Source: Lingula anatina (lineage: Eukaryota > Animalia > Brachiopoda). Taken from it: a stretch of 64,000 nucleotides of DNA. The stretch is from the NCBI GenBank assembly GCA_051362555.1, contig CM120641.1, forward strand, positions 33,300,401-33,364,400, given 5' to 3'. Both the position numbers and the translations under genes were made by a program. Shown here one piece after another: positions 20,101 to 64,000 of this stretch. The notes beneath the pieces were generated by a model. That model searched no databases. It was not told the origin of the DNA and worked only from the letters and a program-made list of their open reading frames with translations. Each line of letters opens with the position of its first letter. Position 1 is the first letter of the stretch.

Positions 20101-23100
20101 ATGAGGTTTGAAAAATTTTGTAACCCAGCAATTTGTTCCCTTGTTTCTTATGATTAATTAGTTTGGCACCAATTCAAGATAGGCGGTCTTCCTTGAAATT
20201 GCTTTCAGTATTAATATCACTTTTTTCATCACCGGTATTAATGAGGCGTTAAAATGTTTCCTTTTGCTGCGTTTTAATAGTGAAATTTACTTTCTATGCT
20301 CCACGTTTTGCAAGATAATGTTGTAGGTAATCTCTAGCTGATTCTCTCTGATTCTCTATTCTCTATCTCTATATCTAATTCTCTGTTATATCCGAATGCT
20401 CTCCCTAAGGATATTGTCATCCTTCGTCCAAAACTTCTTATTTACTTACATACATTCTTTTGGGCGATTTAATGACACCATTCAGTACTCAAAATCACTG
20501 CCAGTGATTTTTCTTAAAACTCTTAGTTCGGATTTTATCGTTGATAAAGCAAAAATAATGCCTTTGTTTAATAAAATGTGTAATAAGGGGCTCATTACTC
20601 CATAACAAAAACATTTAAACCAAAATGACGGCACAGGATTGTGACCCATATACTCGTGGTCAAATGTGCTAATTTTCGTGATAAAAACTAAGATCCATGC
20701 GCCAACCACCACGATTTTCTAGGACAATGCCATTCGTTGATAAAGCAAAATAATGCCTTTCTGTAATGGACATTTGTAATTAGGGGCTCATATCTCTATA
20801 ACAAAAGTATTTAAACCAAAATGACGGCACGGGATTGTAGCCTATACTCTCCTGGTCAACTCTGCCAATTTTCGTGATAAAATCTTGTTCAGGGATGAAG
20901 TTACGCCCCCATGCTATCTCACCTCAAAATAGAAAGGCGTTAAATTGATGATTAAAGCTTTGATTTGCCTATGCTTATACATTGCACTGAGAATTATAAA
21001 CCCCGATATTTTATATTTTCGAGGTTTTTTATTGTTTTAAATCAGCACAAAGATAGATTCTCAATTGAATAATTGGATGCAGGAGTAACCTCATTTTCGG
21101 TATCTGGATGATAATAAAGGGTTACAAAAGCCTGTAACACCTTTTTATTGTCATATTACATGGTCTGAATATTAAGAACTAATTCTGTGACGGTTCACTT
21201 TTTGGTTGTTTTTCAAACGAGTATCATACATCATACCATCTACTGCGATATATGATTGTGTTACATTTATTTTCGATTAATGATCTTATATATTATTCAA
21301 TATGTTGATGTCATTACAATACAGATAAAGACGAGTGTGTGGACGGCACCCACCAGTGTCAAGAAACATGTGTCAACACCGCCGGCAGTTACAGATGCGA
21401 GTGCAGCAGCGGCCTGTTATTGGATTCAGACGGGTTTTCCTGCATAACACGTACGTTATTTCCTTATACATATGCCTACAGATGTTATGTGACCGTGGCT
21501 ACGTACGCTTTAAATACTCGGTTTTAGGGGTGATATTGGGGTGAAACACGAGTACTTTCTCTGAGTGTGTACGTTTAATAATACACTGCCACCCTCTGGC
21601 TGACGCTCGAGGGGTTCTGGCATATATCGCCCGGGTAGCAGTGAATTATCTCACGCTTACAACTGTTAATATCTTCTCTTATCATCGTTAAATCAAATTC
21701 TTGTCAGTCAGAATACGGGAATTTTTTAGTTTCAAATATGTGCAACCAAGTGCGACTGCTAATAGACGGGGAATTTTAAGATCTCAAATTCTGAATTTTT
21801 CAATCAGAATACGAAGAAATCGACTCCGCATTAATAATGCTCAGCTTTTTCCTTTTGGTATAAGCTGTAGCTTACGATTATTACCTTATTTGAACATATT
21901 TTCGGTCCTTTAGTGTCGGAGTTATGCAGAGTCTATTGTGCCACGTATTTTTCTCATTTTTATAAATGATAATGCACTCAAAATATGTTAAAGTTTACCT
22001 CATAGGCATTTTAAAAATACTATTATTTTAAAAATACTATTCAGGTACCTGTTCGTTGTGAGATAATATTGTTTTTGAGGACTTTTGCTATAGGAAAAAG
22101 ACATCAACGGCTATTATTTAATGTCAATACTTGATTTCAATCTGAAGCATGGGAACATCCCAAGTAGCGTGTCATTAAGAATGGTGTCATATTGTATCCT
22201 TCTTTATTCTGTAGCGTTCGGAGGTGGGACATTCACAAACCTTGGCGCCACAGGAAGGGATGGACCTACTTCGGTGGGCTCTCACTATGACGGTACAGAC
22301 CTTCAGGGACTGGTGACTGTTACCAACGGCATCCAGTCCATAACCATGCCTGCCGGTGGTACTTACAGAATAGAGGCTGCAGGTAAGTGGACGGCACAGA
22401 CTCTTTACTACTTAGGCGTAAAATTAACTTTTTGGTAGAAGTCTCTTGCGACGGTGCTGATGTTAAACGGGACTTTTGTTTTTATATGTTGGAGAAGCAT
22501 TGTTCCACTGTTTGGTCATGGAAGTTTATTCTAATCTTCCATGGTCTGGTAAAATAAACCCGGTATTTATGCAAGGTTAAATGATCTTTCCCACAAAACT
22601 ATTGGCATATGCTTATTTTTTAGGTGCCGCTGGCGGGTGTGACAATAGTGGGTGTACAAACCGAGGCTACGGCGCGTATGTGGTTGGAGACTTTACGCTT
22701 AATGCAGGTAAATATGCGCTTGCGTGTGAGTTTGTGTGTGCATGCACGGTATGGAAAAGTGTATTTGGGCATGTCTGTGCATATATGCAAGTATCACGAA
22801 TTATATGAAAATAAATCTTTTAGGTTAGTCTTCGTGCACACCCAGCAGTGAGCAGTCATCCCAGCCTGCATAACTATCGCTAATTCTTGACCAACGGCTA
22901 TTTTACAGGTGACCAACTGAAGATTCTAGTAGGACAAATGGGCGGTGAGAATTCCTATTCCTCCTGCGGTGGTGGTGGCGGCACATTCTTGACGTACGCT
23001 GATAACACGCCTATCATCATAGCTGGTGGCGGGGGAGGTATTGAGGGGGCTTCAACTCGGCGAGCAACGTGTGGTGGCACTACAAGCACTACCGGAAACA

Positions 23101-23516
23101 GCGGTCACAGCGGTGGTACAACTTGGCCTGGTGGTTCAAACGGAGAGGGCGCTTCAACTGCGGACACCAGTAATTCAGGCGGCGGCGGCGGTGGCCTGCT
23201 GACTAACGGGCGCAGTAGCAGTGAGTTTGGAGGATCCTACGGTACGGGAGGTGAGGGTGGATTCGCTTTTGTTAACGGAGGTACTGGTGGCAGGCCGAAA
23301 TCACACAATGCCTGGGGAGGATTCGGTGGTGGGGCCGGGGCATATGGCAACGGCGGAGGGTCGGGGGGCGGAGGCGGTTACTCGGGTGGAGCTAGCGGAG
23401 ATAATTACGGAGATTCATGCGCTGGAGGAGGGGGCTCGTACAACGCAGGAGACAACACTTCGGGTCAAAACGATTACAACAATGGTCATGGTTATCTGAT
23501 CATGACCAGAATATAA
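17159..23516 (+). CDS. Secreted protein: signal peptide, PAN/apple-like Cys module, calcium-binding EGF domain and ALK/LTK-type glycine-rich domain; no TM or kinase
   Basis: Exons joined by phase-1 introns: 17159-17201, 17460-17645, 18204-18245 (less certain), 21325-21450 ([27 protein letters not shown]...), 22215-22382 ([13 protein letters not shown]...[19 protein letters not shown]), 22624-22707 and 22909-23516 (LKILVGQMG...GGGGGTF...IIAGGGGG...GGFGGG...GGGGGYSGG...GGGGSYN...[10 protein letters not shown]). These motifs typify the ALK/LTK extracellular glycine-rich region. Confidence 0.8.
19576..19980 (-). mobile_element. Possible degenerate LTR-retrotransposon gag remnant
   Basis: GC-richer intronic island. 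[26 protein letters not shown] resembles the double zinc knuckle of Ty3/gypsy gag. No LTRs or pol seen. Confidence 0.3.
20539..20885. repeat. Two diverged tandem copies of a ~196-bp unit
   Basis: CGTTGATAAAGCAAAA...TTTAAACCAAAATGACGGCAC...AATTTTCGTGATAAAA starts at 20539 and again at 20735. Confidence 0.8.
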
Positions 23517-28378: not shown

Positions 28379-40342
<11,964 letters not shown>

Positions 40343-40964
40343 TTTGCTTCTTAATATTTGACCGACTTCGTCGATTCCGCGGGAAAGAGTCATGCACACA
40401 TTGGCTGGCGCAAAGCATGACGGGACATGGCTTTTGACCTGAAATTGATCGCCGTCCAAATAAGGAGCACGTGGATTTAAATGCCGGTCACACCTGTCAA
40501 AAAGTAAACACCGGTTGTGCGCATCCAGCTGAAAATTTTGAGGACAAGTAATTTGATTGTTGTTGTTGTTGCAGTAGTAATTCAGGTATGAGCTCAGTTG
40601 TAAAAACATGTTAGTGCTGCTTTTTTAATTCTAAATTTTATTCAGAAATCATTTACTGTTTAAACAGATATCGAGTCCCGGATTATTCCAGAAAAAACTC
40701 TATTTAAATAACTTTTTTGTTGAGGTGACTGTATAAACAATGGACCCATATGATAAAAGGATCAGCTTTTAATGTATGTTCAATTAAAAAATATTGAATC
40801 CCGTGAACTGGTTAAAATTTTGCACTCTGATAAACAAGCAATTAAAACTCATAGAATTTAAATACCTTATTGAGCTCTTGATTATGTATATAAAGTGTTT
40901 TACTACACACTCCTCAATAAGACCATGCGCTATTTTGGACGTCATCCATACTCTTCAGTCATTG

Positions 40965-47229: not shown

Positions 47230-49763
47230 GCGCGCCCACATTTTCGATACTTTCATAATGACGTTGAAGTAAAATATATCAAGTAGATCGTTGTCTAAAT
47301 CAAAGAAATCGAAAATACAATGATCCCGCCTTACCCTAGCCCCACAAAACATAAGAAGGATATGTATTTGTTTATGCTTGCAGCCTCGTTTTCCTGTTCA
47401 CGCAATCCGGACGAGCTAGTAGTGTCAGTGACGGACAGCGAGGACGTGACCATCCGCGCCGTGTACGTGCAGGGAAAACGATCCATAGAGAACTGCGTAG
47501 CCAAGGAAGGGAATGGCTCAATCTATAACCCGCATAAACTGGTCCTGAACGCTTCCTTTCAGAACGAGTGTGGCATCATGGTAAGGGTTTTTAACATTTT
47601 TATTATTTTTTTAACTATCGTCACGGCATTAATTATCTATTTGAAATCTAGGGTGGATGTTCTGTTATATGAATAGCGACTCTTGTACGACGATTAACTC
47701 TTTTAAGTTAAACACTTTTTTAAAAATTGTATTAGGTATAATCAGATATGACAGCACAGGGGGCTAAACCTGCATTGCTTTAGTCCTTTTCTTTAACCAA
47801 GCTATACTGTTTCCACAGGGTGACGGCATGCCTGAAACCCCATACACAGTTACCGTCCTCGCGGTCCGCAGTCCGAAGATAGAGACATCGCACGACTACG
47901 CCTTTCTGCTCTCCTGTGAAACCGTGACAACCACACAGACCGTGATGAGGGAAGGAATGTCCATACAGAGGCTGTAAGTACTGCAAAGAACAAAAAATTG
48001 CATTTTGTGTAACAGCATTGTGTTTGGTGTGGCACCATTGTGTTTGGTGTGACTGAGTGGTGTAGAAGTCGGGTGTTTGCTGCGCAAGTGCGAGTGGATT
48101 TTTTTCGATGATTCAATTATTTCTTGGCAAATTCCACCCTCCTCTTAAAAAAAAGTTTTTTTTTTGCTGTACTGAAGTATAAATAAAGCGGCCTGTAGTA
48201 GACGCTTAGGAGTAGTTTTCATCCTCTCCCATTCAGCTCTTAATCAGTCTTCCACGAGAAAGAAAGAAAAAGTCAAATGTCAATTTTGTGTAGAGATTTT
48301 ATAAATAGAAACTAACACACTAATCAAACTCATACATATTCATAAGTTAAAATAATTATTTTAGGCAATATATCCAAGAGGCAGCTAATAAAATCTCAGA
48401 GCAGGTGAAGATGGATCTGGTAGACATGACAGTTAACGCAAGCGGTCTTCCCTTTGATGAACCTGTCATCTCCTGTGTTATGGGACGACCAGTGGCTATA
48501 CGCATCACACTAACGCCCTCTGGTAGTAGGTATATTATTATGTTATATAGAAAGTGGCGCCAATTGCCCGTATGATCACAAAATGAACACACAAAATCAT
48601 TTTTTTATTTATTGCCTCCATATTTCAGCTATCGCATTACAGATAATTACCCCGTTTTTCGTAAAAGGTTATTCCGATCACCAACGTTCTCTTGAAAATG
48701 TTTTTCGTTATTGCGTGCTTTTTGCAGATGCCAAAGGTATCCACCCCATCAGCTGCGTTATAGCCCCAAGTATCTCCAAGCGGTCATATCTACAGCTGCT
48801 TCAAAATAGGTAAACAATGCAGACATACATCGATCTCCCACTCATTACTCAATCACAGATATCACTAGGTTTAACAAAAGGGCAAGCCTCTTACATTAAC
48901 ATATAATAACCAACTCAATGTCAAAATGATAAAAAGAAAGAAAGAAAGAAAGTGAGGTTCTTCACATTGAAACAAAATACGCGTCACCAACTAAAAACTC
49001 AATTGTTCTTTTCCTTTTAGCTGCCCTATTACAGACAATCCACCAGCAGCTGTACTTGTGACAGGGTTTTCTCAGCATCACACGGATCCAACCCTAGATG
49101 GAGCCATCATACAGTCAGGCACGTTTGAATGTTTTCGGTTCCCAGATGTAAACACGCTGCATATCGAATGCGAGGTGGACTTTTGTCCAGATGCAGAAAA
49201 TCTAAAATGTACCCATGTAAGAAATATTTTTTATTTGTTTTATTTGCTTTTTTTTTCATTTATTTATTTTAATGTGTATATTTACCGGATTTATGGTATC
49301 ATTTATTACTTAGAAAAATTAACGCAGACCATGTTTAGAGTGGTATGCATTAAACAGTAGGTCACGATAGTGATATGATAGTCACCGGTTAGTGATATCA
49401 TTATCCAGTAAAAAAAGGATAGTTTTGTGTTGGAAATAATAATAAAAAATTTCACGAATTAGGCGCCGGACTGCCCTTTTGAGGCTGCAGTTAGTCGTCG
49501 GCGTAGGTCAGCTACTAACTACACTGACCACTCCACCATTGGTGCTACCATCCTGGTTCAGACTCTTCCCGAAGTCCTACACTCAGGAAAATCAGGTGCA
49601 TTATCTTTGTTATTTTATGTTTAATATGGCAAAATAATAATTAAAAAATCAAAAACCAGCTGTGCTTTTTAAATTCACATGGTTAGCGCTAGACTTCAGA
49701 TTAAGGCATATAAAAGTGTTCATTTGGAAAGTTGCCAACTGTTGTTGGGGGTGCATTCTTAGT

Positions 49764-49806
<43 letters not shown>

Positions 49807-50320
49807 GTGGATATGAACACAAACCAGAAATTTGATTAACAAAATACATAGAAGCATTTTACGGGACATATTGGTAATATATGTGACTTCAGTTTTCAGT
49901 TCTATTGATAAATTCCTACGGATTATCTTGTAAGGATGACTGCTTTTATTTGCCAATTTCTGGGATCATAGAGAGGTGCATAAAAAAGTTGAAAATTAAA
50001 CTGAGAAAACTAAACTATTTGAGCAACAGTATAGTATCTTTATTATTGACATTTTTTATATTCTCATAAGAAACAAACCTGTTTAACAACCCCTGTGTTC
50101 TTTTCCAGACTCGGGAGCAGTTGAGAGTAGCATTAGAAGTTGTATACAGAACATAGGTTTCATGGTGTTACTGGTGATCTTGGTGGTGCTGTGCGTGGTG
50201 TCAGTCTGCGTGACAGCTGTGTTCTGTTGGAGGGCGTGGCGTTATTCTATAACTGACCAATCAAATTTGGAGAGAAGAAAGAAACTGGAGCGGGAAGGGA
50301 TTGCTAACATCGCCTTCTAA
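45959..50320 (+). CDS. Zona pellucida (ZP) domain type I membrane precursor
   Basis: Exons 45959-46006, 46675-46720/46725 and/or 46963-46999, 47384-47580, 47819-47973, 48365-48522, 48728-48809, 49021-49216, 49463-49595 and 50109-50320. Signal peptide, ZP-N Cys pattern (SFSC...ENC...NECG...LSC), ZP-C motifs (NSCP; TFECFRFPDVNTLHIECEVDFC), furin site RRRRS, TM FMVLLVILVVLCVVSVCVTAVFC and a short tail. Confidence 0.85.
49764..49805. repeat. Poly-G homopolymer (about 40 nt), intronic
   Basis: Directly visible. Confidence 0.9.
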
Positions 50321-52080
50321 ACAGTCTCAGTATAATATTATCTGTTATCATAAATTGAACTGACGTACTCCCTCTCTTTAAGAAGTTACTTTAAGGAACT
50401 GTTTGTGGGATTTTGTCGGAAAAAAAACATCCCCATCGACAATATCAATATACCTTTTAAACATCACTGCATCAAGGTAAAGTGTACACGGGAGCAAAAA
50501 CACTACATGAAACAGGTTATCGATACTTTTCTTTCAATGCCCAATCTAAATTTTCCTCTATACATTCAAAACACTTTAGGGGCTATTGGACCGCATTCTT
50601 AAAATCATTTATTATATATGAATTGTCTCGACGGAAACTTAATACTATTTTCGCCAATAGATTTCTCCTCTTGATCTTGAATGTCGATATTTTTACTTTT
50701 GGTGTCAAAGGTGACATATTTAGGTCGTGGAACGGTAAACCATCATGGAACTAAATTTGTTTAAATCTAAAACATCACTAACTTTGGTAGTACACGATTT
50801 TAAAAAAGAAATCAAGAATACAACATCCCACAAACGGTCTAATTCAGATTTTCATTGTGCGATAAGTGTTCTTCGATAATCTCTCACGGAGAATGAAGGA
50901 CAGAGATTCGAACCCCATCTGTGTAAATGTGCTTAGGAATCACTCCCATTTAGATTGCTATTTCAAGTTTTGAATACTTTACAGCCATTTTTGAAATCAA
51001 TTATTGTTATCGGTTAACTTTTAAGATGTTGAAATATATATGCATATTTGTCAGCGATTGTTACAATTAATTGCCCGCATATATCCTAATGGTCAAGTCG
51101 TTAATAACAACACGCAGTATTTCAGTTATGTCAGTTTTGCCTAATGCGGTCTTTGGCATAGACTCTTGATTTCAACCTTCTTTATATGAAATATAAACCA
51201 TGAATAAGAGCGTCATCATAATGCACAGTGTATAACGTGCAAAATAATAAAAAGATTGCATTTAAGGGTCCGTCTTCAGGGGTGAGGCTTAAAACCTATA
51301 TAGGATAAACTGAGAATAGTGAATACGTTTTTTTTCTTTTTTTTGTGCCAGAGAGACGAACTTCCATTAAGTGAACAAGAGTCCAATATCAACAAATTGG
51401 TAATTGGTTTTTAATATAATGAAAGATGCTATTCATCTTCGTATTTTTACGGAGACTCCATTGTGTAGTTCATGTTTAGTTGTTCTAATGAGACATTTAA
51501 TAAACACAGCTTATATCCAACTGTGACGTACGTTTTTCACTGGAGGGTGGGCAGTATTTCTGACAGCTTGTATTCTTGCATAAAGGGGAGTCGACATTGT
51601 CTTACCAGAACGAAGTTCACTTCTTCAGTCTCTTTCATGTCCCATAAAAACTTCCTTTTCAAAAAAGAGTTATCTAATATTACGCCAGACCGACACTGTT
51701 TAACAAAGTGATATAAAGCGATGGATAAACACAGAATACAAAAATACATAAGAATTGCAAATAATTTATTAAAATCTAACTTCTGTCAAGAAGTTTAAGC
51801 TTATTTGAATGAGAATATAAGTTACAACAAACAATCTAAAAAGACAACTCATTTTTTGGAAACCTAATAAAAAACTTTCATCAGAAGTCTTGCTTGATGC
51901 TTTTGTTTATTTTTTCTTCAGAAAAAAAAAAAAAAAACTTTCGTAAACTAAGGTAAATAACACTAAAACCTTAGACATCTTAAAGCTAGCTAAGAACATT
52001 GTTAAAAACTTCACACATGAACAATGGGATTTTGATCTAATTAATGAAACAGCCCATATATAACTTCACGATCTAAGACA

Positions 52081-52935
52081 TCACTGAATGGGAGCGTCAC
52101 ATCCAATAAGCCGTCTTACATAGGTGGCGTATTGGTCTCCGTAAGTTTTCTGGCACAGGCCGAGAACATGAACTTTGACCTGATCTGACCAAGCGAGAAC
52201 CTGTTTATGACAACGTTCAAAATGCTCTCTGTATTCTTCCACGCTCTGGCCGGCCACTAATTGAAGCGCGTGCGGGTTTACGGCGCCAGGACTTATTTTG
52301 GCAAACATAACTTTCCTGGACGATTTCAAGATTTTCCCTAGTCCTGACATATCAAGGTGAGCCATGGCTTGCTGGACCTTGAAAAGAGAAGGGGTGGGAT
52401 CGCTAAAAACTTTTAAAAGCGAAAGCAAATATAAAGGGCCTTTTCGTATATTTTAATATAAAAATTTTTAATTAAAAAAATTTGTAAAAATGTATACATG
52501 CTAACTTACTTTAACTTTTTTTTTCTTATTTTACTTTTTCCTTTTTACAACAGCAATTCAAATATTTTATCTTTATTATCTGAAATAAATTTTATGGACC
52601 ACTTCACTTTTTCAAAATAACGTTACCTCTGGGGCAGTGTACATTCGCCCCGTGCGACAGGAGGAAAATGTCCTCTGTAACCCTCGCACCGACACCAGCG
52701 GGCCGCTGAATTTCAGGATACGTAAAGTGAGAAAGTTCAGACTCTCGTCCGTCAATGGCTTGGTGTCGGGGTGAAAAGTCAGAGTTTCCGGGTGGTCTGC
52801 CCCTGCCAATTCTGCTCCTCCGTACTGGACTGTATTTGCTGTTGATGACGGCATGAACATTTCAGCTGGCGTGGGCATATCGTTTCGACGACACGGGAAG
52901 AGCGGTGGGTGGGCGTGTCTGCTTGATATTTGAAG
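52081..52935 (-). CDS. Two-exon terminal module (52935-52627 + 52377-52081), putative winged-helix-like domain; most distal 3' end of a gene that starts outside the window
   Basis: Acceptor ttttcccttttag|CTT, donor GAG|gtaacg, acceptor cttttcaag|GTC, all phase 0. Product ...LRILKFSGPLVSVRGLQRTF...TAPEVQQAMAHLDMSGLGKIL...VMFAKISP...SVEEYREHF. AATAAA at 51770-51765. The fold assignment is inference. Confidence 0.65.
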
Positions 52936-53288
52936 CTAAAAGGGAAAAATACATCTTGGTGATCTGTTGAGTTATATATTATGAACACATATCACATCGA
53001 TATCATGATGCCCTGTGTTAATATGTATGGCAAGTGAGTTAACGTGTAGAATCGGTTTCGGAGTTAACTTAAACCGCTTGTCAAGTAATTATTTTTTTCA
53101 GTTGAAATAATTTTACTTTTTTCATTGTCAAAAATGGATATGTAATATCAAAGATAAAATGCATATAATTATGACTGATTCAGCCTCAAATTTCATTGGC
53201 AACACCATTTTGGCGGGAGAAGTGCCAAAAAACGGACTTTGATGGGGTAAACAAAATTTTCCCCATACTTTATAACGGTAAATGAATC

Positions 53289-53448
53289 CAGGGCCGTAGC
53301 CTCCGGGGGGGCAGGGGGGGCAGCTGCCCCCCCTGGGATTTAGAATTTTCCACACTGGTAGGGGGACACCCCCTCCCCCTTCGGGGGCTTCGCCCCCTCG
53401 AGTCCGCTTACTGCCCCCCCCTGGCATTTTGCTCAGGCTACGGCCCTG
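53289..53448. mobile_element. MITE with TIR CAGGGCCGTAGCCT and 5-bp TSD GAATC
   Basis: Perfect 14-bp TIR. GAATC at 53284-53288 and 53449-53453. Confidence 0.85.
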
Positions 53449-54509
53449 GAATCTGTTCTGACATTCAAATTTTGTCGATCGTTTCTTTTAAGTGCAGTTT
53501 TGGTAACAATCTCTTATTATGGAGGACTATTTATGCGCCTCTCATACGAAGTCAATGGCAGATTCTGAAGCAAACCTTTCCAATCAGCCGTTGGACACTG
53601 AAAAGCGGCACGACATATGTGGATGGAAACTTGTAAAATTGAATTTTTTATTATTCCTATTTCACAAGCAAACCGTTATTGAGAAAGAAATGGGTTTAAG
53701 GACAATTTGATTATATTCGCAGTCTAACTCGAAATTGATTCTTAAATAATTTATGGACGATCAAAGCCGATACGCGAAGGAATGGTTACAAAAATTACAG
53801 AAGGAAAAAAATCAATATTTGTTGACTTATATTATGAAAGACGCTAGTAAATGGTTAATACAGTGTATATCAAATGAGAAATATAAATATATAAATATAT
53901 CTATTGCGAACTCGTAGGCATTAAGAATGACACTTAACTTGATGAAATACACGTATAAGTAAAACGTAAGAATTAATTGCAAAATTGAGATTTATTACAT
54001 TAAAAAGCACCAATTGCAATACAAAACCTAAAAGAATTTGGACATGGGTAGTTTAGTTACGTACTGTGCATAAGATTAGCTACTATACGAGTGTTGGTAC
54101 CTTTAAGTATGTTGACTGATTAAGCATGTCTAGATACACACAATTCTATTGTGTTACATCGAACAGATACCGGTACATTATCAATGTCTACAATGTTGTG
54201 AAATGATTTTATATAATAAGAGTGAAAAAAAGTGAAATATGATATCAAATTTTTAATGATGTAAACAAAGAACCACATATCTGGGGTTTATGAATCTTCT
54301 GCTTACTGGACAAATGGGCTTGTCAATAAAAATGGGCTTGTCAATAAAAATATAAGATGCCCTCACCTATGGTGAATACACAGAATAAGCATCAATTGTT
54401 AAGTGATTGATATTTTTAGTTTGTTTAATGTGTAAATGTTTTTATTGTATATATGTTGTGGAAATATGAACTACCTGATGATCTGTGGCATGAATTGAAT
54501 GTCATTTCA

Positions 54510-56121
54510 ATTCAAAATGGGCTGCTTTATCCAATATGGTGACCAAAATTTCACCAAATTTTGCAATTAAGTCATGTATACCTTAATTTATAATTTCATT
54601 CAATCATGATAAAAGTAAACTGTTATCAAATGTAGGTTTTTTACAATATTATAGATTCATCTTACTACCTATATTACAGTATGAAGTGAAAATCTTTCAG
54701 AACAAGAGTTACGTTTGAACTACTATTGCATTTATGTACACACACATTATTAGCACAGAGCTCTTTTAATGTTAAAGACCAAAAAGAGCTTTTGTCAACA
54801 GAAGCAATATAGCAACCTCTTCAGGAATTAAAGTATGGAAACAATTTTTTACTTGATTACCATTTTTAAAAACATGATGGATATTATAGATAAATTTATT
54901 TGGTAAGTGGCTATATTTATGAGGATATATACATAATAAGAAATACTCAGTAATTCAACAGTTAAGCTCTTAGAATTGTCTTATTTAATCCTAAAAGTAC
55001 AGCACATGTGTTTTAATGTGGATATAAATGAAGACACAAAAGATGGAAAGACTCTTGATGCAATAAATGAGAGCATTTTCTTACTAACTAGATTTTTACT
55101 GAACGCCTTTGCATTAAGAAGTGATATTGTAGATTATAATGTTAACCGTCCGGATAGGTAAATGAAATAATTGTGTTGTATTCATAATTGATTTCTGTAT
55201 GTACACATAAAACCTTGATTGTATATATCTTCTGTATTTGTACAGATTGGTATGTATTTTAGGTCAGAGGCCTATAACTACAACAAATAAACTCATCATC
55301 ATTATCACTGAACTTATTCTACAATATCTCAAAGAGATCCAAAAACATTGCTCAACCTGAATCACTTGTTTTGATGAAGAGAAGAAAGTTCTCGAGTCCA
55401 GATTCTGGCCTATTTAACATACCAGCAAGTCATATGAACTTGTAGGACAGGCAAGAAGCAAGATCAAGAGTCAGTGTACCTCTACTACCAGACCCATACA
55501 GTCCAATCAGAAAAAGAAAAGCACTTTGTAGTAAAGATGTGATTTTGTGTCTTATGCAGCATTGGTTAATAACAGTGTTCTCCCAACACAGACTGGTTTT
55601 TATGAGGATCTTACAGAAAAGAAGTTGCTGTAATAAGACTATACAATCAGATACCAGCTAATATTCCAATTGTCACCCACAAACCCTGATGAAGTTCAAG
55701 AGTCTTTGGACTATTTTGTGCAGCTTACACAAAGCAAGGGACAAGAAAAAACTGAGAAAACGTGATCAAACAATCTACGACATCCTAGAAAAAATAAAAA
55801 AGAAACATGCCCATATAAGTATAATGATGAGGTTTCACAATGCAGAGAATATTCTATGGAAAGCATTGGTGACAATGGAAAACAGTGGAATGGAAGAATT
55901 GATTGTGTACGGAATAGCAAAAAGGATTTTGAGTGGAAAGGATTACTACAAGATTGGGGGGTCTACTCTGTTGCTGGAAAAGCTATGTTGGGGCTTAAGT
56001 GGAAAGCATTTGAAAGCTGGTTAGAAGAAAGGCATGAGGCCGAGGCCTGCACGGTGGACGAAGAAGATGGTGTTTTTGGGCATGTATATAGCTGTCTTTT
56101 TATTAAAAAATAAAAATAAAA

Positions 56122-56160
<39 letters not shown>

Positions 56161-57445
56161 GGAAAGAGCTGTCTACTGGGATTTGCAGCTTGAGAAAGTC
56201 CAAAATATATGAACAGACTTGGCTATTGAGCAGACCTACAACAAAGAAGGTAAAACGTCCTTGCTGAAAAGTATCTTTCAAAACCAGGTAATCCATGATC
56301 AGTACATTAGATCTGCCCTCTTGTTAACTAGGGTGACTGAGATGTGCAGTCAGTGGCTGGTATGAAGGAAGAAGCATTGGGGCATCAGAGAGGGTCAAGC
56401 ACATTTTCAAGAGAAGAACAACAACTGATTAAAAAGGTCAGAGAAACAATAGAAGAATTCTTGATTGACCCATTCACATGCTCAAACTGGATAACCTCTT
56501 TCACATTGCCACAAGAGAGAAAGCCCCATCATCAGATCTTTAAGAAATTTAAGAAGTTCTGTAGCAAGCACAAAACCAAGATTTGCATAAAATTATGCCA
56601 CCACATTCAGCACTTCTCATCCAAAAGGCAAATTTACGGGTCTGCTTAATCTGTATCAAGATGGAGTTTCAATTACAAGAGCTCTTTGCCTTTTCAAGAA
56701 ACTGACTCCCAAAAATAACACTTCCATTTATGAAAGGGCGGTGTATCAACCATCCTTGTTTGAGGCAAGCCGGAAGCTCCTATAGGGACTAAGGGTTTTG
56801 CATGCTAAATGGGAAAATATGCTAGCTTCTGAAGACTGTTTCCCTGAGCCCACCTTAGACACTGCCACATTCTAATCTAAAATGAGTATACAGAGTGGAT
56901 GCTATGGCCTTCATTCAGAGGTTTTAGCATCTTAGGGTCAGTACCACTAGTGATCTGTCTGAAGCACATATAATCCATTTTCTTGGCGACAGGAACTTTT
57001 TTCACAAGAAGAAAGCCAAATCAAAGAAAGTCTCTCGTACTTTCTGCGCCAAACATGGGTTCAAGGGAATACAATTAAACCGAACATGGTTTGTTGACCA
57101 CCATCTTGGATGCAGTTGCCATCTTGGATTAAGATACCATCTGAAATTTGCCTCTATAAAAAATACACAATTGTCTGGGATACCATATTTTGTCAGATGA
57201 AAACCCACTTCATTAACATTTGAACTTTCAGTAGAATATGCCCCTTTGACTCATAATGGAAAGGGGCATATGGCAGCCATATTGCATTTTTCCTGATCAT
57301 AAAAGCCTTCAGAGTGCATATAAACAATAAAATTTGGGTAATATCGTTAATAATCTATTTTTCATAAATGCTTGCTTTTATCATGACTGAAAAAAATTTG
57401 GTAAAATTTGGGTTGCCATCTTGGATAAAGTAGTCATTTTGAATC
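54510..57445 (+). mobile_element. Decayed large DNA transposon-like element
   Basis: Broken + strand ORF remnants (DQTIYDI...MMRFHNAENILWKALVTMENSGMEELIVYGIAKRILSGKDYYK; IEEFLIDPF) of a type recalled as common in marine invertebrate repeats. Inverted sub-terminal similarity between 54510-54620 and 57370-57445 (CAAAATG...TTTATCCAA.ATGG...CAAATTT...TCATGATAAAAG). Confidence 0.55.
56108..56160. repeat. (AAAT)n microsatellite
   Basis: Directly visible. Confidence 0.9.
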
Positions 57446-58153
57446 AAGTAGACTTGCCAGTCATTTAAAACTCAAAATTAAAAATAATAATTGAAGTCAG
57501 AAATATTATAAAATATGGCCTCTAAGAGCAAGAGTGGCTCAAAACGTGATTAGTAAGTAAGACAAACTACTATTTGAGAAAAAAAAAACAAATGGCCGGA
57601 AAATCCTGGATAAGGAGGAAAATGGCACAAAAGAAAAAGCATGTAACTGGAATGAATAATTAATTGACAAATTAAAGAACAGATGTGTATATTCTTAGGT
57701 TGGATATATTATCTTAATACATCTTGTTAATATATCTTCTACATTCCAAAACTTAAAGCCTTATATTTGAGCATTTCATACAGAATATACAATAAAATAT
57801 GTAAAACAACATATTAAAACAAGCAAAATAATAAATTTTTGCTCTGTTACAAAGACAGCTCATCACTGGCCATGTTCCACTTTACCTTTTTTTAGTACAC
57901 TTAGTAAAGTAAAATGAATTTGATGCGTGTCTGATAACCCTTAAAATACTGCTCGCTGAACACGAACTAAAAATCCATTTTTGAAAAGACAGATTAATTC
58001 ATATCTACCTTACATTTGCCCTCTACCCAATTTCCCTTGAAATTCTTAGGACTGCGAATCCCTTACAAAAATTTCCTGTATTGGATGCCCTTATCAAAAC
58101 AATGCTTTATAGGTGACAGTGTCCTAGGACCCATAAATAATGCAAACAAAGGG

Positions 58154-58378
58154 CTAACTATCTGCCGTGTGGATGGGTGAAGATACATTTTGCTTCTGTT
58201 TTTCCAAAGCAACTCTTCTCCAGTGTGTGATGGTGGATTTGGGAATATTATATTTCTTAGCAACGTATATCATAGTATGGCCTTTTGCCTCTTGTAATAT
58301 CATCTCTTTCTCTTTCTGGCTGTAGGAGCGGTAGTTGCCACGAGGAGGTCGGCGTTGCTGGAAGGCAGCCCTTGGCCC
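58154..58378 (-). CDS. Alternative terminal exon encoding a psq/Brinker/CENP-B-like helix-turn-helix DNA-binding domain
   Basis: Acceptor cctttgcag|GGG, phase 0, 75 codons including the stop. RGNYRSYSQKEKEMILQEAKGHTMIYVAKKYNIPKSTITHWRR carries the (A..Y.IP.ST...W) HTH signature. Confidence 0.8.
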   Translation of the reverse strand, partial: GPRAAFQQRRPPRGNYRSYSQKEKEMILQEAKGHTMIYVAKKYNIPKSTITHWRRVALEKQKQNVSSPIHTADS

Positions 58379-58448
58379 CTGCAAAGGTATCAACACCCTA
58401 TATTGTTAATGTGGTACACAGGATATTGTGTTCATTGGCAGTATGTTA

Positions 58449-58879
58449 GACCCCATTCCCAGAGATTAGATCGATCCAAACTAGATCGACCTAACTCCCT
58501 GGGGGTTCACGCTAAATATCTGTCAGCCGAGCGGGCACGAAAGTTAAATACCCCCTTACAGCTTGTAGTAGGCGGGACGGACATTAAAGTCGGATTATCT
58601 GACAGTTATCTAGAGAGACTCCCCACGGGGATAGATCGATCTAAAATCTATGGGATACGCCCTAAGACCCCATTCCCAGAGATTAGATCGATCCAACTAG
58701 ATCGACCTAACTTCCTTGGGGTTCACGCTAAATAGCTGTGAGCCAAGCTGGCACGAAAGTTAATTATCCCCTTACAGCTTGTAGTAGGCGGGACGGACAT
58801 TTAAGCCGGATTATCTGACAGTAATCTAGTGAGACTCCCCACGGGGATAGATCAATCTAAAATCTATGGGAATGCACCC
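58449..58879. mobile_element. Head-to-tail tandem pair of ~214-bp Harbinger-type MITEs
   Basis: TTA-[58449-58662]-TAA-[58666-58879]-TTA. Each unit has imperfect TIRs (CCCATTCCCAGAGATT / AATCTATGGGA...CCC). Confidence 0.75.
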
Positions 58880-59705
58880 TTAGGTGACATTGTGTTAGGA
58901 GCAATGGGCTGTTGTAGGAGTAATAGTAAGGCTGTTCTAGAAAGTAAGATGTGGTAGCTAAAATAGATGTGATGGCGTGTTTGGTTTTGATTGTGTTACG
59001 TGTGATGTGAGTTTAGTTCTGGTGCTGTTAGATGTGATAGTATTTTAGGTGAAATAACTGATGTGATTGCACACTAGCTGGAACTGCATTGGGTGTGGTG
59101 TTGTGCTTGACATTAAATTTTGGAGAGTGAAACAAGCCAAGGCAATTATTAGCTGTGTGCTTAAAAAAGATAGTGTTAGGTGTAAAGTGACCAGAATACT
59201 AAGTGTTATGTAAAGCCTGAAAGCATTTCTGGTTACCATAAAGATGTCAAGACATTGGTAATCTTTGTGACAGTGCTGTCTGTGACTGTGGCATAGTTTT
59301 CAGTATATATGGTATAACATTCTTTAAATCATATCAGTATGTTCCGAAGGCCAATGCCTTAACAGAACAGTATGACAGAACATGTGAGAATTTGTGTTGA
59401 AATTTAATTCTTTATATATGAATATTCTGTATTTCATTGTTTTTTTTTTTTTTTGTATAGTTGCACATACTGACATAATAGGATAGTGGACAAGTGAACT
59501 AGAATTGTGAATGATGACATCATGCTTAAGCTACTATATGTGCTAAATAGATGAAATGTATAACAAGATAAGATTTAAGGTGAAGCACATACTGGCTCTT
59601 CTACTACCACTACTACTACTACGCAGGAACTAATGGTCACAGCCAATTATTGTACTCCTAAAACACTGTCACACCTACACACTCCCTGTCAAACATTTCC
59701 CTACA

Positions 59706-60068
59706 CTAAGTGAGCTTTGCTTTCATCTCAGCATTCAGGGCTTCTCTGTGATCACTGATCAGATCATGTTTGCTGACATTATCCTTTTTAAAGATGGCAC
59801 ATCCTTTGGTGAATGAATTGGTTTTGTTGTGCTTCTGACACAAAGTGCAGTACATCAGATTTTTGTCTTTATCGTAGTGGATCCAGTTATAGTCATACGT
59901 CCAGGATTTCTTGAAGCAGCGGCTGCCTTGGGAATGAACCCTGCGGAATCTGGGCTGCTCTGCACCCAAAATGGCAGCACTGTTTGGACGCTGTTTTGGA
60001 TCCCAAATTATGGTGGTAACTGGTGTCCAGGTGGCTTGACCCGTGTGGGTGCTGAGGGGGACCGTCAT
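59706..60068 (-). CDS. Alternative terminal exon encoding a TTF-type (hAT transposase/ZNF862/C17orf113-like) zinc finger
   Basis: Acceptor caatttttaaag|ATG, phase 0. RCFKKSWTYDYNWIHYDKDKNLMYCTLCQKHNKTNSFTKGCAIFKKDNVSKHDLISDHREA. Confidence 0.85.
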   Translation of the reverse strand: MTVPLSTHTGQATWTPVTTIIWDPKQRPNSAAILGAEQPRFRRVHSQGSRCFKKSWTYDYNWIHYDKDKNLMYCTLCQKHNKTNSFTKGCAIFKKDNVSKHDLISDHREALNAEMKAKLT

Positions 60069-60998
60069 CTTTAAAAATTGATAAACAGATTGCATTATCT
60101 TTTTTGTTGCTTGGAGGATATGTCATATTATGTTGTTTTCTATCATATGAACTTTATGAATGACTGAATGTATAGGGTCACAAAATAGATATACCCCTAG
60201 ATTACATTTTCAAAGAACTTGTTTATTTCATTTTTGTGTCTTAATTACAAAATATGTTTACCTTGGTAACAGTAACTGATATTATACAGTGAATCATATA
60301 ACCTAAAGTAAGATAGGAATGATCACCTTAACAAATTATGAAATGGTTTTAGCACAGTTTTTCATAAAGGTTCCATAATTATGTGTTGTCACAGTGATAA
60401 CTTCATGAAACATTGATTAGAGGGAGTAACATCAGTGATAGAATCATGAGTCTCATTAACACAATATAATGAGAATTTGACAAAGCCAACAACTGTCTCA
60501 AATCACATGCTACTATGGATATACCAAATTAGAGTTTTTTCATAAGATCATTTCCTAACTTGAAAAAAAAGGGTGATTTCTTAATGTAAGGCAGCTATAT
60601 GTTAATAACCTAATGCCAACTAAAATGTTAATTAAATAGGAAATATGGTAGATTACATACCCAACAAAAATTATTTGAAATTCTTCTCTGCCTCTGTTAA
60701 ATATTTACGTAACTGACTGTCACACCCACCACAGCTAGCACAACTTTTAATATATTTATTCAACTATCACATTTAACTTATTTCTAAATATGACCCATTT
60801 GATACATTAAGTTTCTGAACTTAAAAAACTGTCACATATAATACAATGAAGTATTTGTACAATTTTATTATGTGACTTACTCTGCTATGCCATATCTGCA
60901 TAAAAATTATATGCATATCCCTAAAGAGAATGTATTGCTCTTGTTGCGCTAAAAGGGTGCACAACTAACACACTTGCACAGCAGCACAATGTGTTACG

Positions 60999-61409
60999 TC
61001 AAGTGCACTGAGACTCTTGGCTGACAGCTTCTTTGTGATCTGATATCAGTTCATGCTTACTGGCATTGTCCTTCTTAATAGTTGTGCAGCCCTTTGTAAA
61101 GGCATTAATCTTGTTATGTTTCTGACACAAGGTACAAAACATCATTTCCCTTTGGGAATCGTATTGAATCCAGCCGAATTTAGCTCGCCATGACTCCTTA
61201 AACTCCCTCTTTTTGCTTTTTTTCAAATCCGAGTCCAGGTCATTTGGGGAAACAGGAATGAACGGGACATTTGAACTGCAGGTTGAAGCGATCTTCCACT
61301 GTTTCTCACCATCTTCATCTGGATCATGATGAAAAGTAGGAGTCTCTGCATTATATCTACTGTAGGGTGCAGCACGTGTGCTGTTATCAGAGCTGGTTTC
61401 AGGAGTCAT
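60999..61409 (-). CDS. Alternative terminal exon encoding a TTF-type zinc finger
   Basis: Acceptor cttaccactttcaaag|ATG, phase 0. REFKESWRAKFGWIQYDSQREMMFCTLCQKHNKINAFTKGCTTIKKDNASKHELISDHKEA. AATAAA at 60760-60755. Confidence 0.85.
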   Translation of the reverse strand: MTPETSSDNSTRAAPYSRYNAETPTFHHDPDEDGEKQWKIASTCSSNVPFIPVSPNDLDSDLKKSKKREFKESWRAKFGWIQYDSQREMMFCTLCQKHNKINAFTKGCTTIKKDNASKHELISDHKEAVSQESQCT

Positions 61410-61825
61410 CTTTGAAAGTGGTAAGACAAGTTTTAGACTAATTGTACAGGGGACAGATAAAGACAGATAAAGTTTCAAAATTGTGCTTGCAGTATGCATG
61501 ATTTTTGTAAAAGTTTAGATTTCAGTCTAAAGCAATGATAAAGGTCTCAAAAGTTTATATTCCGCACAATACCTCATCGATTAGAGTTTTAAACCCTTTA
61601 CATTTTTAAAGTACAAAGCATCATTTGCCAATTTAACATTTCCATCATAGTAAACAACTGTCACACCTAACAAACTGTCTTGTAAAATTTTTGCATATCA
61701 TGTAATTTGAATAAACCTGATAATTGCTAGCAAACTTAGTAAAGTCTGTAGCACAGATCATAAAATTCCAGTTGGTCACACCCGACTTTCCCTAACACAA
61801 TCCAAGTCTCACCTAACATAATATA

Positions 61826-62131
61826 TCAGATGTTTTCTGACATCTCAGCACCAGCAGCCTCCCTGTGATCAGTAATACAATCATGCATGAATAAATCATA
61901 CTTCCTAAAAATGCTCGTTCCCCGAGTAAATTTATTGGACTTGTTATGTTTCTGACACAGACTACAAAATAGTAAGTTCCTCTCCCTATCAAAACGGAGC
62001 CAACTGTACTCATAGGTCCAGGCTTGCTTGAAATAACGGTTTCCTTTGGTTGTACCAGCTGGTAATCTGATTCCACCTGCAACCTGCCTTGTCCACTTTA
62101 TACCTTCATCTGTGGCACCACCTACAGTTTT
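61826..62131 (-). CDS. Alternative terminal exon encoding a TTF-type zinc finger
   Basis: Acceptor aatttgcag|AAA, phase 0. RYFKQAWTYEYSWLRFDRERNLLFCSLCQKHNKSNKFTRGTSIFRKYDLFMHDCITDHREA. Confidence 0.85.
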   Translation of the reverse strand, partial: KTVGGATDEGIKWTRQVAGGIRLPAGTTKGNRYFKQAWTYEYSWLRFDRERNLLFCSLCQKHNKSNKFTRGTSIFRKYDLFMHDCITDHREAAGAEMSENI

Positions 62132-63931
62132 CTGCAAATTCATAAATAAGCAACCCAAGCTGTTGGTAAAACTAAAGAAGTAAAATATGAAGTGTATTTT
62201 TTTCTGCAAAAATAAGAATTCAAGCTTCTATATAAGCTTTTTTGACATTCCAATTGCAACACTGTGCCCAATTTGACTTGAATATATCTGACACTTTCTC
62301 ACTTAAAAAACAGAAATGTAAAACTGCTATTGCATGCCATGGTTATCTGCCACTGTGTTATTGAACACTTGGACACGCATTAAAAGCTTCAACCGTCACA
62401 CCTAACACAATCAACTAGTTTAATACTGACATTCAAATAAAACTGCTTTTCAAACTTGACCTGTATTTTTCAGTGTCATATATCATTCCAGTAAATTTGA
62501 GGCTAATCAGTCCAACAGTTTTCAATATATTGAAAAGTGCAGGGCAAAAACAGCAATGGAGGTAGTTCATTGCTGTATGCACAGACACACTGTGTCTACA
62601 CTTAAAAACCTCCCACATTATCTTTTCATTAAGCATGGAATTGCATTCTGTCCGTAGTAATTTTTTACCACTTCTGTGAAACCAATCATCTGAAAAACAT
62701 TCAGTAAGTCAGTCATTCATAAGTCTTCTCAGCCCAACAACACTTATATTTTCACTAGTGGAATAACAAAGCCCTTCTCAAAACCATGGGGTATGCCTCG
62801 GTAAAAGCTCATTTTGGTGGGGTTGGAGGTCAGCTACATGAAGGGGAAAAAAACCCTAGAAACTCCCACGCATTCCCTACCCAAGCAACTGAATAGTTAA
62901 GGAACTTAAACTACTTCTTGTGGCTGTACACATTTTAACTTCTAATAAATCATAATTACTAATAAAACAATTGTACTGATAAAAAAATTAAAAGAAAGTC
63001 GAAGTCTCTGAGCAAAATAAAGGAAATCCTTTTTCTTAAAATGTCTGACAAAACAGTGAATGCATTGTGCAATACATAACTGTCAGGCAGCTTTTGCTTA
63101 GTAAGTTGTTTCTCAAGTCCCACTAACATCTAAATGACCAAAACAGAAAAAGAAATTGAATCATAATAGCTTTAAAATTTATGATAATTAAGGTCTTATG
63201 CCTCAGGAGACATGTGAGATGTGATAATCAAGACCTTGTCATAAATGAAATGTAATAGGTGTGATAGTAAAAACCTCATAGCACGGTTATATTGTCATAG
63301 GTGTGATTATAAAGATCTTGCATCACAGTTGAATTGTGGCAAGTGTGGCCAACACCTGGTGCATTTTGTCAGCCAATCATGGTTTTAATTGTTTCTTTTT
63401 TATTATCTACAATATTATCTACTCTAAAAAAATACAATGTCACATGGCTTAAAGTATATAAAACTGAAATGAATATTAAGACTCTACAAACTGACTTCAT
63501 CTCTATGGCCATTTCTGTAATACAGCAACATTAGATAAAGACAGTAGATAAAGAATAATTCAATTTAAATGTTCAACAACATGGCAAAAATAATCGCTAA
63601 CATTAATATATGCTTTAATGCTTTAAAATTGATATAAATATATCCAATAACAAGTAAGTTATCTGTCACTAAAAATACTCATTTGCCATTCTGTTCAAAT
63701 AAACATGTTTTCAGATCTGAAGAGTCACATACTCATAAGCATATTATTCATTGTAAAACATGAGTCCCACCACAGAAAGACAATATATACTGTATAAAAA
63801 CTACTCAGCTCTATTTTTTTAAATTTCTCTGGTGTTAAGTGTTTTGTAGTAATAATGCCTAAGAATTGGGGGGGGGGGGGGGGGGGGGGTAAGAGTGAGA
63901 TGTCAAAGGTTTATTTGGACAGATTGTTCGT

Positions 63932-64000
63932 TCAAGACCACTTGTCATATTGCTGACCTAAAGACACACCCTCCATCTGTAACTTTTTCTTCAACCGCTG
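63932..64000 (-). CDS. Possible 3' end of a further terminal exon, cut by the window edge
   Basis: Open frame QRLKKKLQMEGVSLGQQYDKWS*, followed 16 nt later by AATAAA (63915-63910). Confidence 0.35.
   Translation of the reverse strand, partial: QRLKKKLQMEGVSLGQQYDKWS

Follow-up and report, generated by a model that had tools for sequence, protein, structure and literature searches.

The alternative 3′ ends of mod(mdg4) and lola each carry their own DNA-binding module, and some of these ends consist of two exons, as described in the cited portions of two reports (PMC13490949, PMC11426971). A locus of similar layout was analyzed herein in a window of 64,000 nucleotides from the brachiopod Lingula anatina (contig CM120641.1, positions 33,300,401 to 33,364,400), in which five coding modules, M1 to M5, were followed up (Table 1). 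The sequence-only reading of this DNA had described it as a mod(mdg4)/lola-like system. The likeness holds in the architecture: constant 5′ exons are followed by one of several alternative 3′ exons, most with a predicted C-terminal DNA-binding module, with one donor and alternative terminal exons found for three of the five modules. It does not extend to family membership. The Pfam scan of the RefSeq protein XP_013386636 at E values up to 5 returned only PF25431 and no BTB domain (this is isoform X3 only, and other isoforms may extend further 5′), and membership of the BTB family was rejected. With no BTB or other Pfam domain in the constant part of isoform X3, the locus resembles lola and mod(mdg4) in the way it works and falls outside their family. 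The TTK-type BTB domain is reported solely from arthropods in the cited part of PMC11426971. The Lingula tails also differ in kind, being TTF-type fingers, a weak helix-turn-helix and the M5 domain rather than FLYWCH or C2H2 modules, and all of them are seen on one strand.

In tetrapods, host-transposase fusions such as KRAB-transposase genes carry transposase-type DNA-binding domains that are alternatively spliced to a host N-terminus, according to the cited part of one study (10.1101/2020.05.07.082677). In Lingula too, domains of probable transposase type are spliced to an N-terminus that is likely regulatory; however, a single donor is used for a whole array of tails, the head differs from KRAB, and old duplication accounts for the fingers. 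The tetrapod fusions mostly carry a single captured transposase each. Purifying selection, a feature of the domains captured in such fusions, was found for M1-M3, and signs of it are weak for M4 and M5.

Tandem 3′ cassettes are shared with PGRP-LC, CG42235 and pip, and in Lingula complementary intronic elements, weakly supported, are possible as well. These three genes are, to our knowledge, not transcription factors. The proteins with a zf-C17orf113 domain (PF25431), which we take to include the ZNF862/C17orf113-like hAT-derived proteins, have the same finger family as M1-M3. In those proteins the fingers follow one another within a single chain or precede an hAT core, whereas in Lingula each finger ends a separate isoform. 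Within titles and abstract openings, no such locus was found described in brachiopods or other spiralians; the supplements of PMC10027918 on transposon-derived factors, including those of Lingula, may list the tails.

The array and its shared donor

The region is best explained as the variable 3′ part of LOC106156073, in which one phase-0 donor is joined to alternative tails and the gene likely makes a family of sequence-specific transcription factors. We place the probability of this reading at roughly 85%. The joining to the donor is established by reads for M4 and M5 and by the RefSeq model for M2, and is inferred for M1, M3 and likely exons beyond 64000.

The five minus-strand modules were confirmed at the coordinates first reported for them. 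An AG precedes each of them, the phase-0 frame is open, and every module closes with a stop of its own. The acceptors had also been called pyrimidine-rich; AG and phase 0 were found at all five, but the M4 acceptor falls below the pyrimidine filter, and yet it is used by reads. The combination of AG and a phase-0 open reading frame is by itself weak evidence. Five such frames were seen versus 1.7 ± 1.2 in 100 shuffles (maximum 5), and the counts in phases 1 and 2 were also raised (7 and 8). The stand-alone frames of M1-M4 had no exact entry in the protein collection queried. For M1, a second phase-0 acceptor is possible at 62203. At 63129, a possible further exon of 56 aa with a strong acceptor gave no domain match and was left out of the module count. 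The partial frame at the end of the window, M0, has AATAAA 17 nt past its stop and RNA depths of 6.6, 6.9, 1.6 and 1.5 in the last bin; this very short piece gave no Pfam match. M0 is likely the tail of a further terminal exon, and the gene likely has five or more alternative endings in total. The MITE-like insertion is outside the coding system.

Table 1 Features of the locus, in positions of the 64,000-nucleotide window
Feature	Position	Strand	Description
M0 (inferred)	63932-64000	-	last 22 codons and stop of a frame entering from beyond the window
M1	62131-61826	-	101 aa; predicted alternative terminal exon; linker and zf-C17orf113 (TTF-type) finger
M2	61409-60999	-	136 aa; alternative terminal exon; linker and zf-C17orf113 finger; residues 299-434 of XP_013386636
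M3	60068-59706	-	120 aa; predicted alternative terminal exon; linker and zf-C17orf113 finger; low RNA depth
M4	58378-58154	-	74 aa; alternative terminal exon; probable transposase-type/Brinker/psq-like helix-turn-helix; spliced to shared donor
M5 first exon	52935-52627	-	joined to shared donor by reads
M5 second exon	52377-52081	-	contains the stop; M5 total 201 aa
Recurring intronic/UTR motif, core TAGGTGTGAC	59645-62416	-	RNA-sense; candidate selector sequences
Degenerate array of complementary motif copies	58880-59300	-	downstream of M3; candidate docking sites
MITE-like high-copy insertion	58446-58885		two copies of ~217 bp; ends ~70 nt upstream of M4 acceptor

RNA reads were taken from five of nine Lingula runs (X1-X4 and X7), at about 6% of each and 25% of X7. 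The M5 acceptor at 52935 (loose ends at 52937) is crossed by 13, 12 and 16 reads in X1, X2 and X3. Similarly, the M4 acceptor at 58378 (loose ends at 58380) is crossed by 8 reads in X1 with an agreement of 0.99, among the loose ends listed. The loose ends of both acceptors have an identical 30-letter upstream consensus, with agreement of 0.94-0.99. The first 21 letters of this consensus are absent from the window at up to 3 mismatches, which places the upstream exon outside the window. Read in phase 0, the shared exon encodes AIARRQEQVK, which are residues 289-298 of XP_013386636 (RefSeq Lingula anatina, LOC106156073 isoform X3). In this protein a 298-residue N-terminus leads into M2, identical at 136/136 residues between the two assemblies. 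A single phase-0 donor beyond 64000, as had been proposed, thus holds for three of the five modules: reads show it for M4 and M5, and the RefSeq model does so for M2. The junction reads show that acceptors 52935 and 58378 share one donor, but none of the junctions listed belongs to 62131 or 60068; the loose ends listed are dominated by reads from the repeat at 58446-58885. None of the long annotated isoforms searched carries M1, M3 or M4 (0/22 candidates; 1/1394, which is the M2 form), and the protein search gave no long M3-bearing protein.

The internal GT-AG intron of M5 is supported by 6, 10, 1 and 1 reads in four runs. RNA depth is zero at 52954-53150, just upstream of the M5 acceptor, in X1, X2 and X3, and in the four stranded runs, X1-X4, RNA outside repeats maps to the minus strand. 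RefSeq annotates the second exon of M5 as the stand-alone 182-aa genes LOC106156066 and LOC106167351. M2 and M3 both start with ATG, and stand-alone translation from their own ATG is possible. A single protein chained from all modules, already doubted from the sequence, was ruled out by the stop in each module and by the reads that join the donor directly to M4 and to M5.

The tails and the head

The three TTF zinc fingers recognized in M1-M3 match Pfam zf-C17orf113 (PF25431) with 48-57 bits versus a cut-off of 29.5. They form one clade (95/89), and in pairwise comparison their synonymous sites are saturated (pS 0.82-1.0 vs pN 0.24-0.34). Judged by these comparisons, the fingers are old tandem duplicates under purifying selection. 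The tree resolved no transposon sister of the fingers, and 8 of the 29 long PF25431 hits picked carry DUF4371 or Dimer_Tnp_hAT. The idea of domesticated transposon domains stands at the family level only, in that hAT transposases also contain fingers of this family; M1-M3 go back to a single finger that was duplicated and not to three captures. A tblastn search with 162 proteins, including hAT-type ones, gave no transposase core (DUF4371, RNase H-like, dimerisation domain) in the window and nothing outside the modules except a weak unrelated match at 23617. No module runs on into a catalytic domain, and the reading of the region as a decayed transposase was rejected, with no catalytic remnant found in the window by this search. 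The sequence-only reading is borne out on these points: the acceptors of M4 and M5 are used by spliced reads, both sets of reads lead to one upstream exon, and the window holds no transposase core. No related locus was found in metagenome contigs.

DNA binding by the tails is predicted from their sequences. The psq-like helix-turn-helix proposed for M4 returned matches of the helix-turn-helix type, but weak ones (HTH_Tnp_1 with E 1e-4 below the cut-off, BrkDBD 0.016, HTH_psq 0.13). M5 had been called a probable winged helix; it gave no Pfam match above the cut-off, no PDB or PHROG match and ESM Atlas hits below 0.85. The pLDDT of its single-sequence model is 40.8, with values below 50 for residues 1-134. 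Among the read variants listed, 17 fall in M4 and M5 (10 non-synonymous, 7 synonymous), and this balance gives no strong sign of constraint on either tail.

The constant part of about 298 residues consists of a head of about 85 residues followed by a low-complexity linker that is acidic and rich in serine and threonine. The head had no Pfam, PHROG or PDB-sequence match. Its single-sequence model has a mean pLDDT of 47.5, and the best Z of the fold search, 5.0, is uninformative. The head is possibly globular and of no named family. The nearest ESM Atlas cluster (score 0.88, 66 members, unnamed, commonest taxon Annelida with 3 phyla records) is taken as a lead only. A HMMER search with the finger profile gave 1396 matches at E 0.001, of which the best 150 were listed; the donor-end motif was absent from the 152 proteins examined after this search.

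Tail choice and competing explanations

In the preferred reading, the last constant exon has a single phase-0 donor from which splicing leads to one terminal exon or another, and the gene would likely give proteins with a common head and differing predicted DNA-binding tails. Each tail has its own stop, and tail choice is therefore mutually exclusive. By analogy with the BTB domain of lola and mod(mdg4), the head would likely supply dimerisation or cofactor recruitment. The choice would likely be settled by 3′ splice sites that compete with each other, in coupling with polyadenylation; long-range RNA pairing, with the finger cluster looped out, may bias it. In this reading the repertoire grew as one TTF-type finger exon was duplicated in tandem, giving M1-M3, and as unrelated domains (M4, M5) were recruited; a transposon ancestry of the recruited domains is likely.

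Competing RNA pairing has been demonstrated in Drosophila, where PGRP-LC, CG42235 and pip show it in their 3′ variable regions (cited part of PMC6191721); that docking and selector pairing of this kind steers tail choice here is a tentative proposal. RNA-sense copies of the TAGGTGTGAC motif lie at 62404, 61815, 61784, 61669, 60840, 60728, 59677 and 59645, inside the finger cluster, and complementary copies flank it, with further ones at 63250-63310 and 58105-58128. This arrangement on either side of the cluster hints weakly at RNA-pairing control. A loop of 62416-62393 with 59188-59165 or 59005-58987 would exclude M1-M3, and one of 59680-59657 with 58128-58105 would exclude M4; 63272-63249 would pair with 62411 or 59684. 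Twelve helices at or below -20 kcal/mol were found versus 5.4 ± 2.1 (maximum 11) in 40 shuffles. For the 62404 copy, the top three partners are all within 58880-59200 (-27.4, -25.0 and -23.8), and 25 random intronic 26-mers give -19.4 ± 3.3. However, the motif was chosen post hoc, its profile has 22 antisense and 27 sense hits in the window outside 57900-63400, and other 5.4-kb regions of the minus strand carry 3-29 such helices. The best energy of -28.6 also lies inside the shuffled range (down to -31.1), and a complementary copy is the clear best partner for only two of the six sense copies tested (62404 and 59677). The motif is like a 5′ splice site (AG/GTGTGA; AG/GTGAGA at 61815) and, as we presume, also resembles a T-box DNA site.

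The same gene and tails could be joined mostly by trans-splicing from separately promoted cassette transcripts; all mod(mdg4) mRNAs are made by trans-splicing according to the cited part of PMC13490949. M5 is modelled by RefSeq as separate genes and yet reads join it to the donor, and the likeness of the intronic motif to either kind of site could serve such joining. We consider it unlikely, since all tails share a strand, RefSeq models the M2 isoform as collinear, and the contigs of this isoform and of the M5 model XP_013386618 are both 1,057,451 long. No RNA was seen in the three runs in the interval upstream of the M5 acceptor, where an acceptor precursor is expected; unpolyadenylated precursors could escape.

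It is rather improbable that only M2, M4 and M5 are true alternative exons, with M1 and M3 independent small genes or rarely used duplicates. The lack of a junction for either among the loose ends listed speaks for this, as do the RNA that is continuous across the M1 acceptor and further upstream in X1 and X3, the M3 depth below about 1 and its initial ATG. Against it, both are intact phase-0 paralogues of M2 with a strongly constrained finger, and both sit between the donor and tails in use. That the tails are decaying transposon fragments caught by leaky splicing, with no transcription-factor function, is very improbable: the hAT occurrence of the finger family and the transposase helix-turn-helix domains as best M4 matches favor it, but catalytic remnants and broken frames are both lacking, pS is far above pN in comparisons of M1-M3, M2 is unchanged between assemblies, M5 depth is made up of spliced reads, and the searches returned a single database protein for M2 and two for M5, unlike a high-copy family.

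Meaning for transcription-factor repertoires

Loci with one head and many tails that encode transcription factors have been described for arthropod BTB genes. The brachiopod case, on an unrelated head and with tails of unrelated folds, points to convergent evolution of this design. RefSeq calls M5 a stand-alone uncharacterized gene while reads join it to the head, and this suggests that spiralian transcription-factor counts are underestimated. The locus lets the growth of DNA-binding repertoires by exon duplication and capture be tested, and also opens to testing the role of the head domain and whether choice acts in cis, in trans or by RNA pairing. It is possible, though doubtful, that spiralians have in this head of about 85 residues their own equivalent of BTB, KRAB or ZAD, a multimerising effector domain common to brachiopods and annelids, and that its genes are open-ended landing pads that go on gaining transposon-derived DNA-binding exons of unrelated folds, with docking and selector RNA pairing deciding among the tails. 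If so, a widespread set of transcription factors would lie hidden, broken up in current annotations into small "uncharacterized" genes.

Terminal modules and their domains

All five minus-strand coding modules (M1-M5) proposed by the sequence-only reading were recovered exactly as placed, with acceptor, phase and stop as claimed. The array ends at 52081, and a convergent gene and then SUZ12 lie beyond it. At the other end, an open frame enters the window at 64000 and stops at 63932, followed by AATAAA, and looks like the end of one further tail.

Features of the window, in descending position
Feature	Position	Strand	Remarks
RNA cover	61975-64000		unbroken in two polyA runs; may reflect intron retention or an extended UTR belonging to a tail upstream
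Acceptor and frame	63129-62959	minus	strong, pyrimidine-rich; 56-codon phase-0 frame without domain match
M1	62131-61826	minus	AG before, phase-0 open, own stop
M2	61409-60999	minus	AG before, phase-0 open, own stop
M3	60068-59706	minus	AG before, phase-0 open, own stop
MITE-like element	58446-58885		high-copy; two ~217-bp copies, 93% alike; much RNA on both strands; inserted ~70 nt upstream of M4 acceptor, separating it from the complementary-motif array
M4	58378-58154	minus	AG before, phase-0 open, own stop
Two adjacent inverted-repeat arm pairs	54490-54651 + 57339-57464		located between M4 and M5 at ~2.8 kb spacing; arms of 60 and 48 nt with 77-81% complementarity; possibly the termini of an old insertion
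Second MITE-like element	53284-53453		19-bp inverted ends, G/C-run interior; reads on both strands
M5, two exons	52935-52627 + 52377-52081	minus	AG before, phase-0 open, own stop
Probable zona-pellucida-domain gene	~47300-50320	plus	convergent with array; weak ZP-C match, E 0.01
SUZ12 (Polycomb PRC2 subunit) gene	~30800-40600	minus	Zn_SUZ12 E 2e-25 at 31448-31738
Glycine-rich exons	22094-23513	plus	no Pfam match at E 0.01; similar to the ALK/LTK glycine-rich region
Decayed frames	7833-8678	minus	similar to a LINE reverse transcriptase 3' end
Long exon	6530-7837	plus	tandem repeats of 10 residues (G/S/L/P/Q/T), reminiscent of mucins or shell-matrix proteins

The zinc fingers called in M1, M2 and M3 were confirmed by Pfam zf-C17orf113 (PF25431; 48, 54.6 and 57 bits, cut-off 29.5), which we take to be the finger named TTF. 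The psq-like HTH called in M4 was found only below threshold (Pfam HTH_Tnp_1, E 1e-4; BrkDBD, 0.016; HTH_psq, 0.13), and domain searches with M5 returned no convincing match for the suggested winged helix. An AG followed by a long phase-0 frame was observed 5 times, whereas 100 shuffles gave 1.7 +/- 1.2; counts for phases 1 and 2 were elevated too. This pattern alone is weak evidence. The case for the array rests on RNA.

A donor common to several tails

Raw reads of the same species label were aligned to 51800-64000 (runs X1, X3, X4, X7) and to 52560-58445 (X1, X2, X3). The stranded runs showed minus-strand RNA throughout the first region, for which the listing of loose read ends was dominated by a high-copy repeat. 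The M5 intron was supported by 6, 10, 1 and 1 spliced reads in the four runs of that alignment. Read matching breaks off at 52937, the M5 acceptor (13, 12 and 16 reads in X1, X2 and X3, with zero depth immediately upstream in all three), and at 58380, the M4 acceptor (at least 8 reads, X1). Past both points the reads continue into one identical 30-letter sequence (agreement 0.94-0.99), the first 21 letters of which have no window match at up to 3 mismatches. In the phase-0 frame set by either acceptor, this sequence, which includes two ambiguous letters, encodes AIARRQEQVK.

When a profile of M4, M1 and M2 was searched among proteins of 239-2000 residues, it hit a single one of 1394 candidates: XP_013386636 (434 aa), isoform X3 of RefSeq gene LOC106156073. 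It consists of 298 residues ending in AIARRQEQVK, followed by M2 (136/136 identical). Its contig matches in length the contig that carries the M5 model XP_013386618. Therefore, the proposed shared upstream donor serves M4 and M5, as seen in reads, and M2, as seen in the gene model; M1 and M3 would be joined to it likewise. The label X3 points to two or more further isoforms, probably with other tails; the searches recovered no other isoform of the gene.

Neither BTB nor any other Pfam domain was detected in the constant part of XP_013386636 (E up to 5), and searches of PDB sequences and PHROG gave no match. By composition, residues 1-85 look globular. Past them the sequence is of low complexity, and in it a KVE motif resembling a SUMO site precedes an acidic stretch. 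Single-sequence folding with fold search was uninformative, and the nearest Atlas cluster (0.88, unnamed, annelid members) offers a lead. By analogy, this part may serve dimerisation or cofactor recruitment.

The second exon of M5 matched one of 36 candidates, XP_013386618 (LOC106156066, 182 aa; 99% identity over the exon), whose cluster includes a second copy, XP_013401558. These are near-identical stand-alone M5 models on different ~1-Mb contigs. Alleles of both occur among the RNA reads, so the two models likely represent haplotype duplicates and not paralogues. Against these models, M5 of the window has 6 and 5 differences in 182 residues, which indicates that the window comes from a different animal than RefSeq Lingula anatina.

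Origin and choice of tails

The finger profile search gave 1396 relatives. From these, 29 were picked, in most cases because of their length, and 8 of the 29 contain hAT domains (DUF4371 or Dimer_Tnp_hAT); therefore, the finger family of M1-M3 is transposase-associated. The proposed transposon origin holds only at this family level, but the top-scoring relatives lack hAT domains, and the tree (35 rows, 68 columns) clusters M1-M3 together (95/89) with the sister group not resolved. No transposase core was found in the window by tblastn with 162 proteins. M1-M3 are old tandem duplicates under purifying selection: saturation at synonymous sites (pS 0.82-1.0) contrasts with a pN of 0.24-0.34. The 17 listed read variants of M4 and M5 (7 synonymous, 10 non-synonymous, 0 stops) say little on selection.

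By default, the tail would be set by 3' splice-site competition, coupled to polyadenylation. Steering by RNA pairing is a doubtful addition. Around M1-M3, sense-oriented copies of a motif (core TAGGTGTGAC) are found repeatedly, with complementary copies upstream (63250-63310), downstream (58880-59300) and directly after the M4 stop; if these paired as predicted, M1-M3 or M4 would be looped out. The controls were mixed: 12 strong helices versus 5.4 +/- 2.1 in 40 shuffles, 3-29 in other window regions, and the motif present elsewhere in the window as well. Trans-splicing of head to tails, a less likely possibility, is made unnecessary by the collinear gene model and the single-strand layout.

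Relation to known systems

The layout is that of Drosophila mod(mdg4) and lola (PMC13490949, PMC11426971). Their TTK-type BTB, reported as arthropod-only (PMC11426971), is absent from the Lingula constant part; the locus works like mod(mdg4)/lola and is not a member. Further parallels are transposase capture (bioRxiv 2020.05.07.082677) and genes whose 3' variable regions use RNA pairing (PMC6191721). A survey of transposon-derived factors with Lingula among the species covered (PMC10027918) does not use the word 'isoform' in its main text. No published description of such a locus in spiralians turned up in the literature searched. The Lingula array is real and RNA-supported, a variant of the known one-head, many-tails design.
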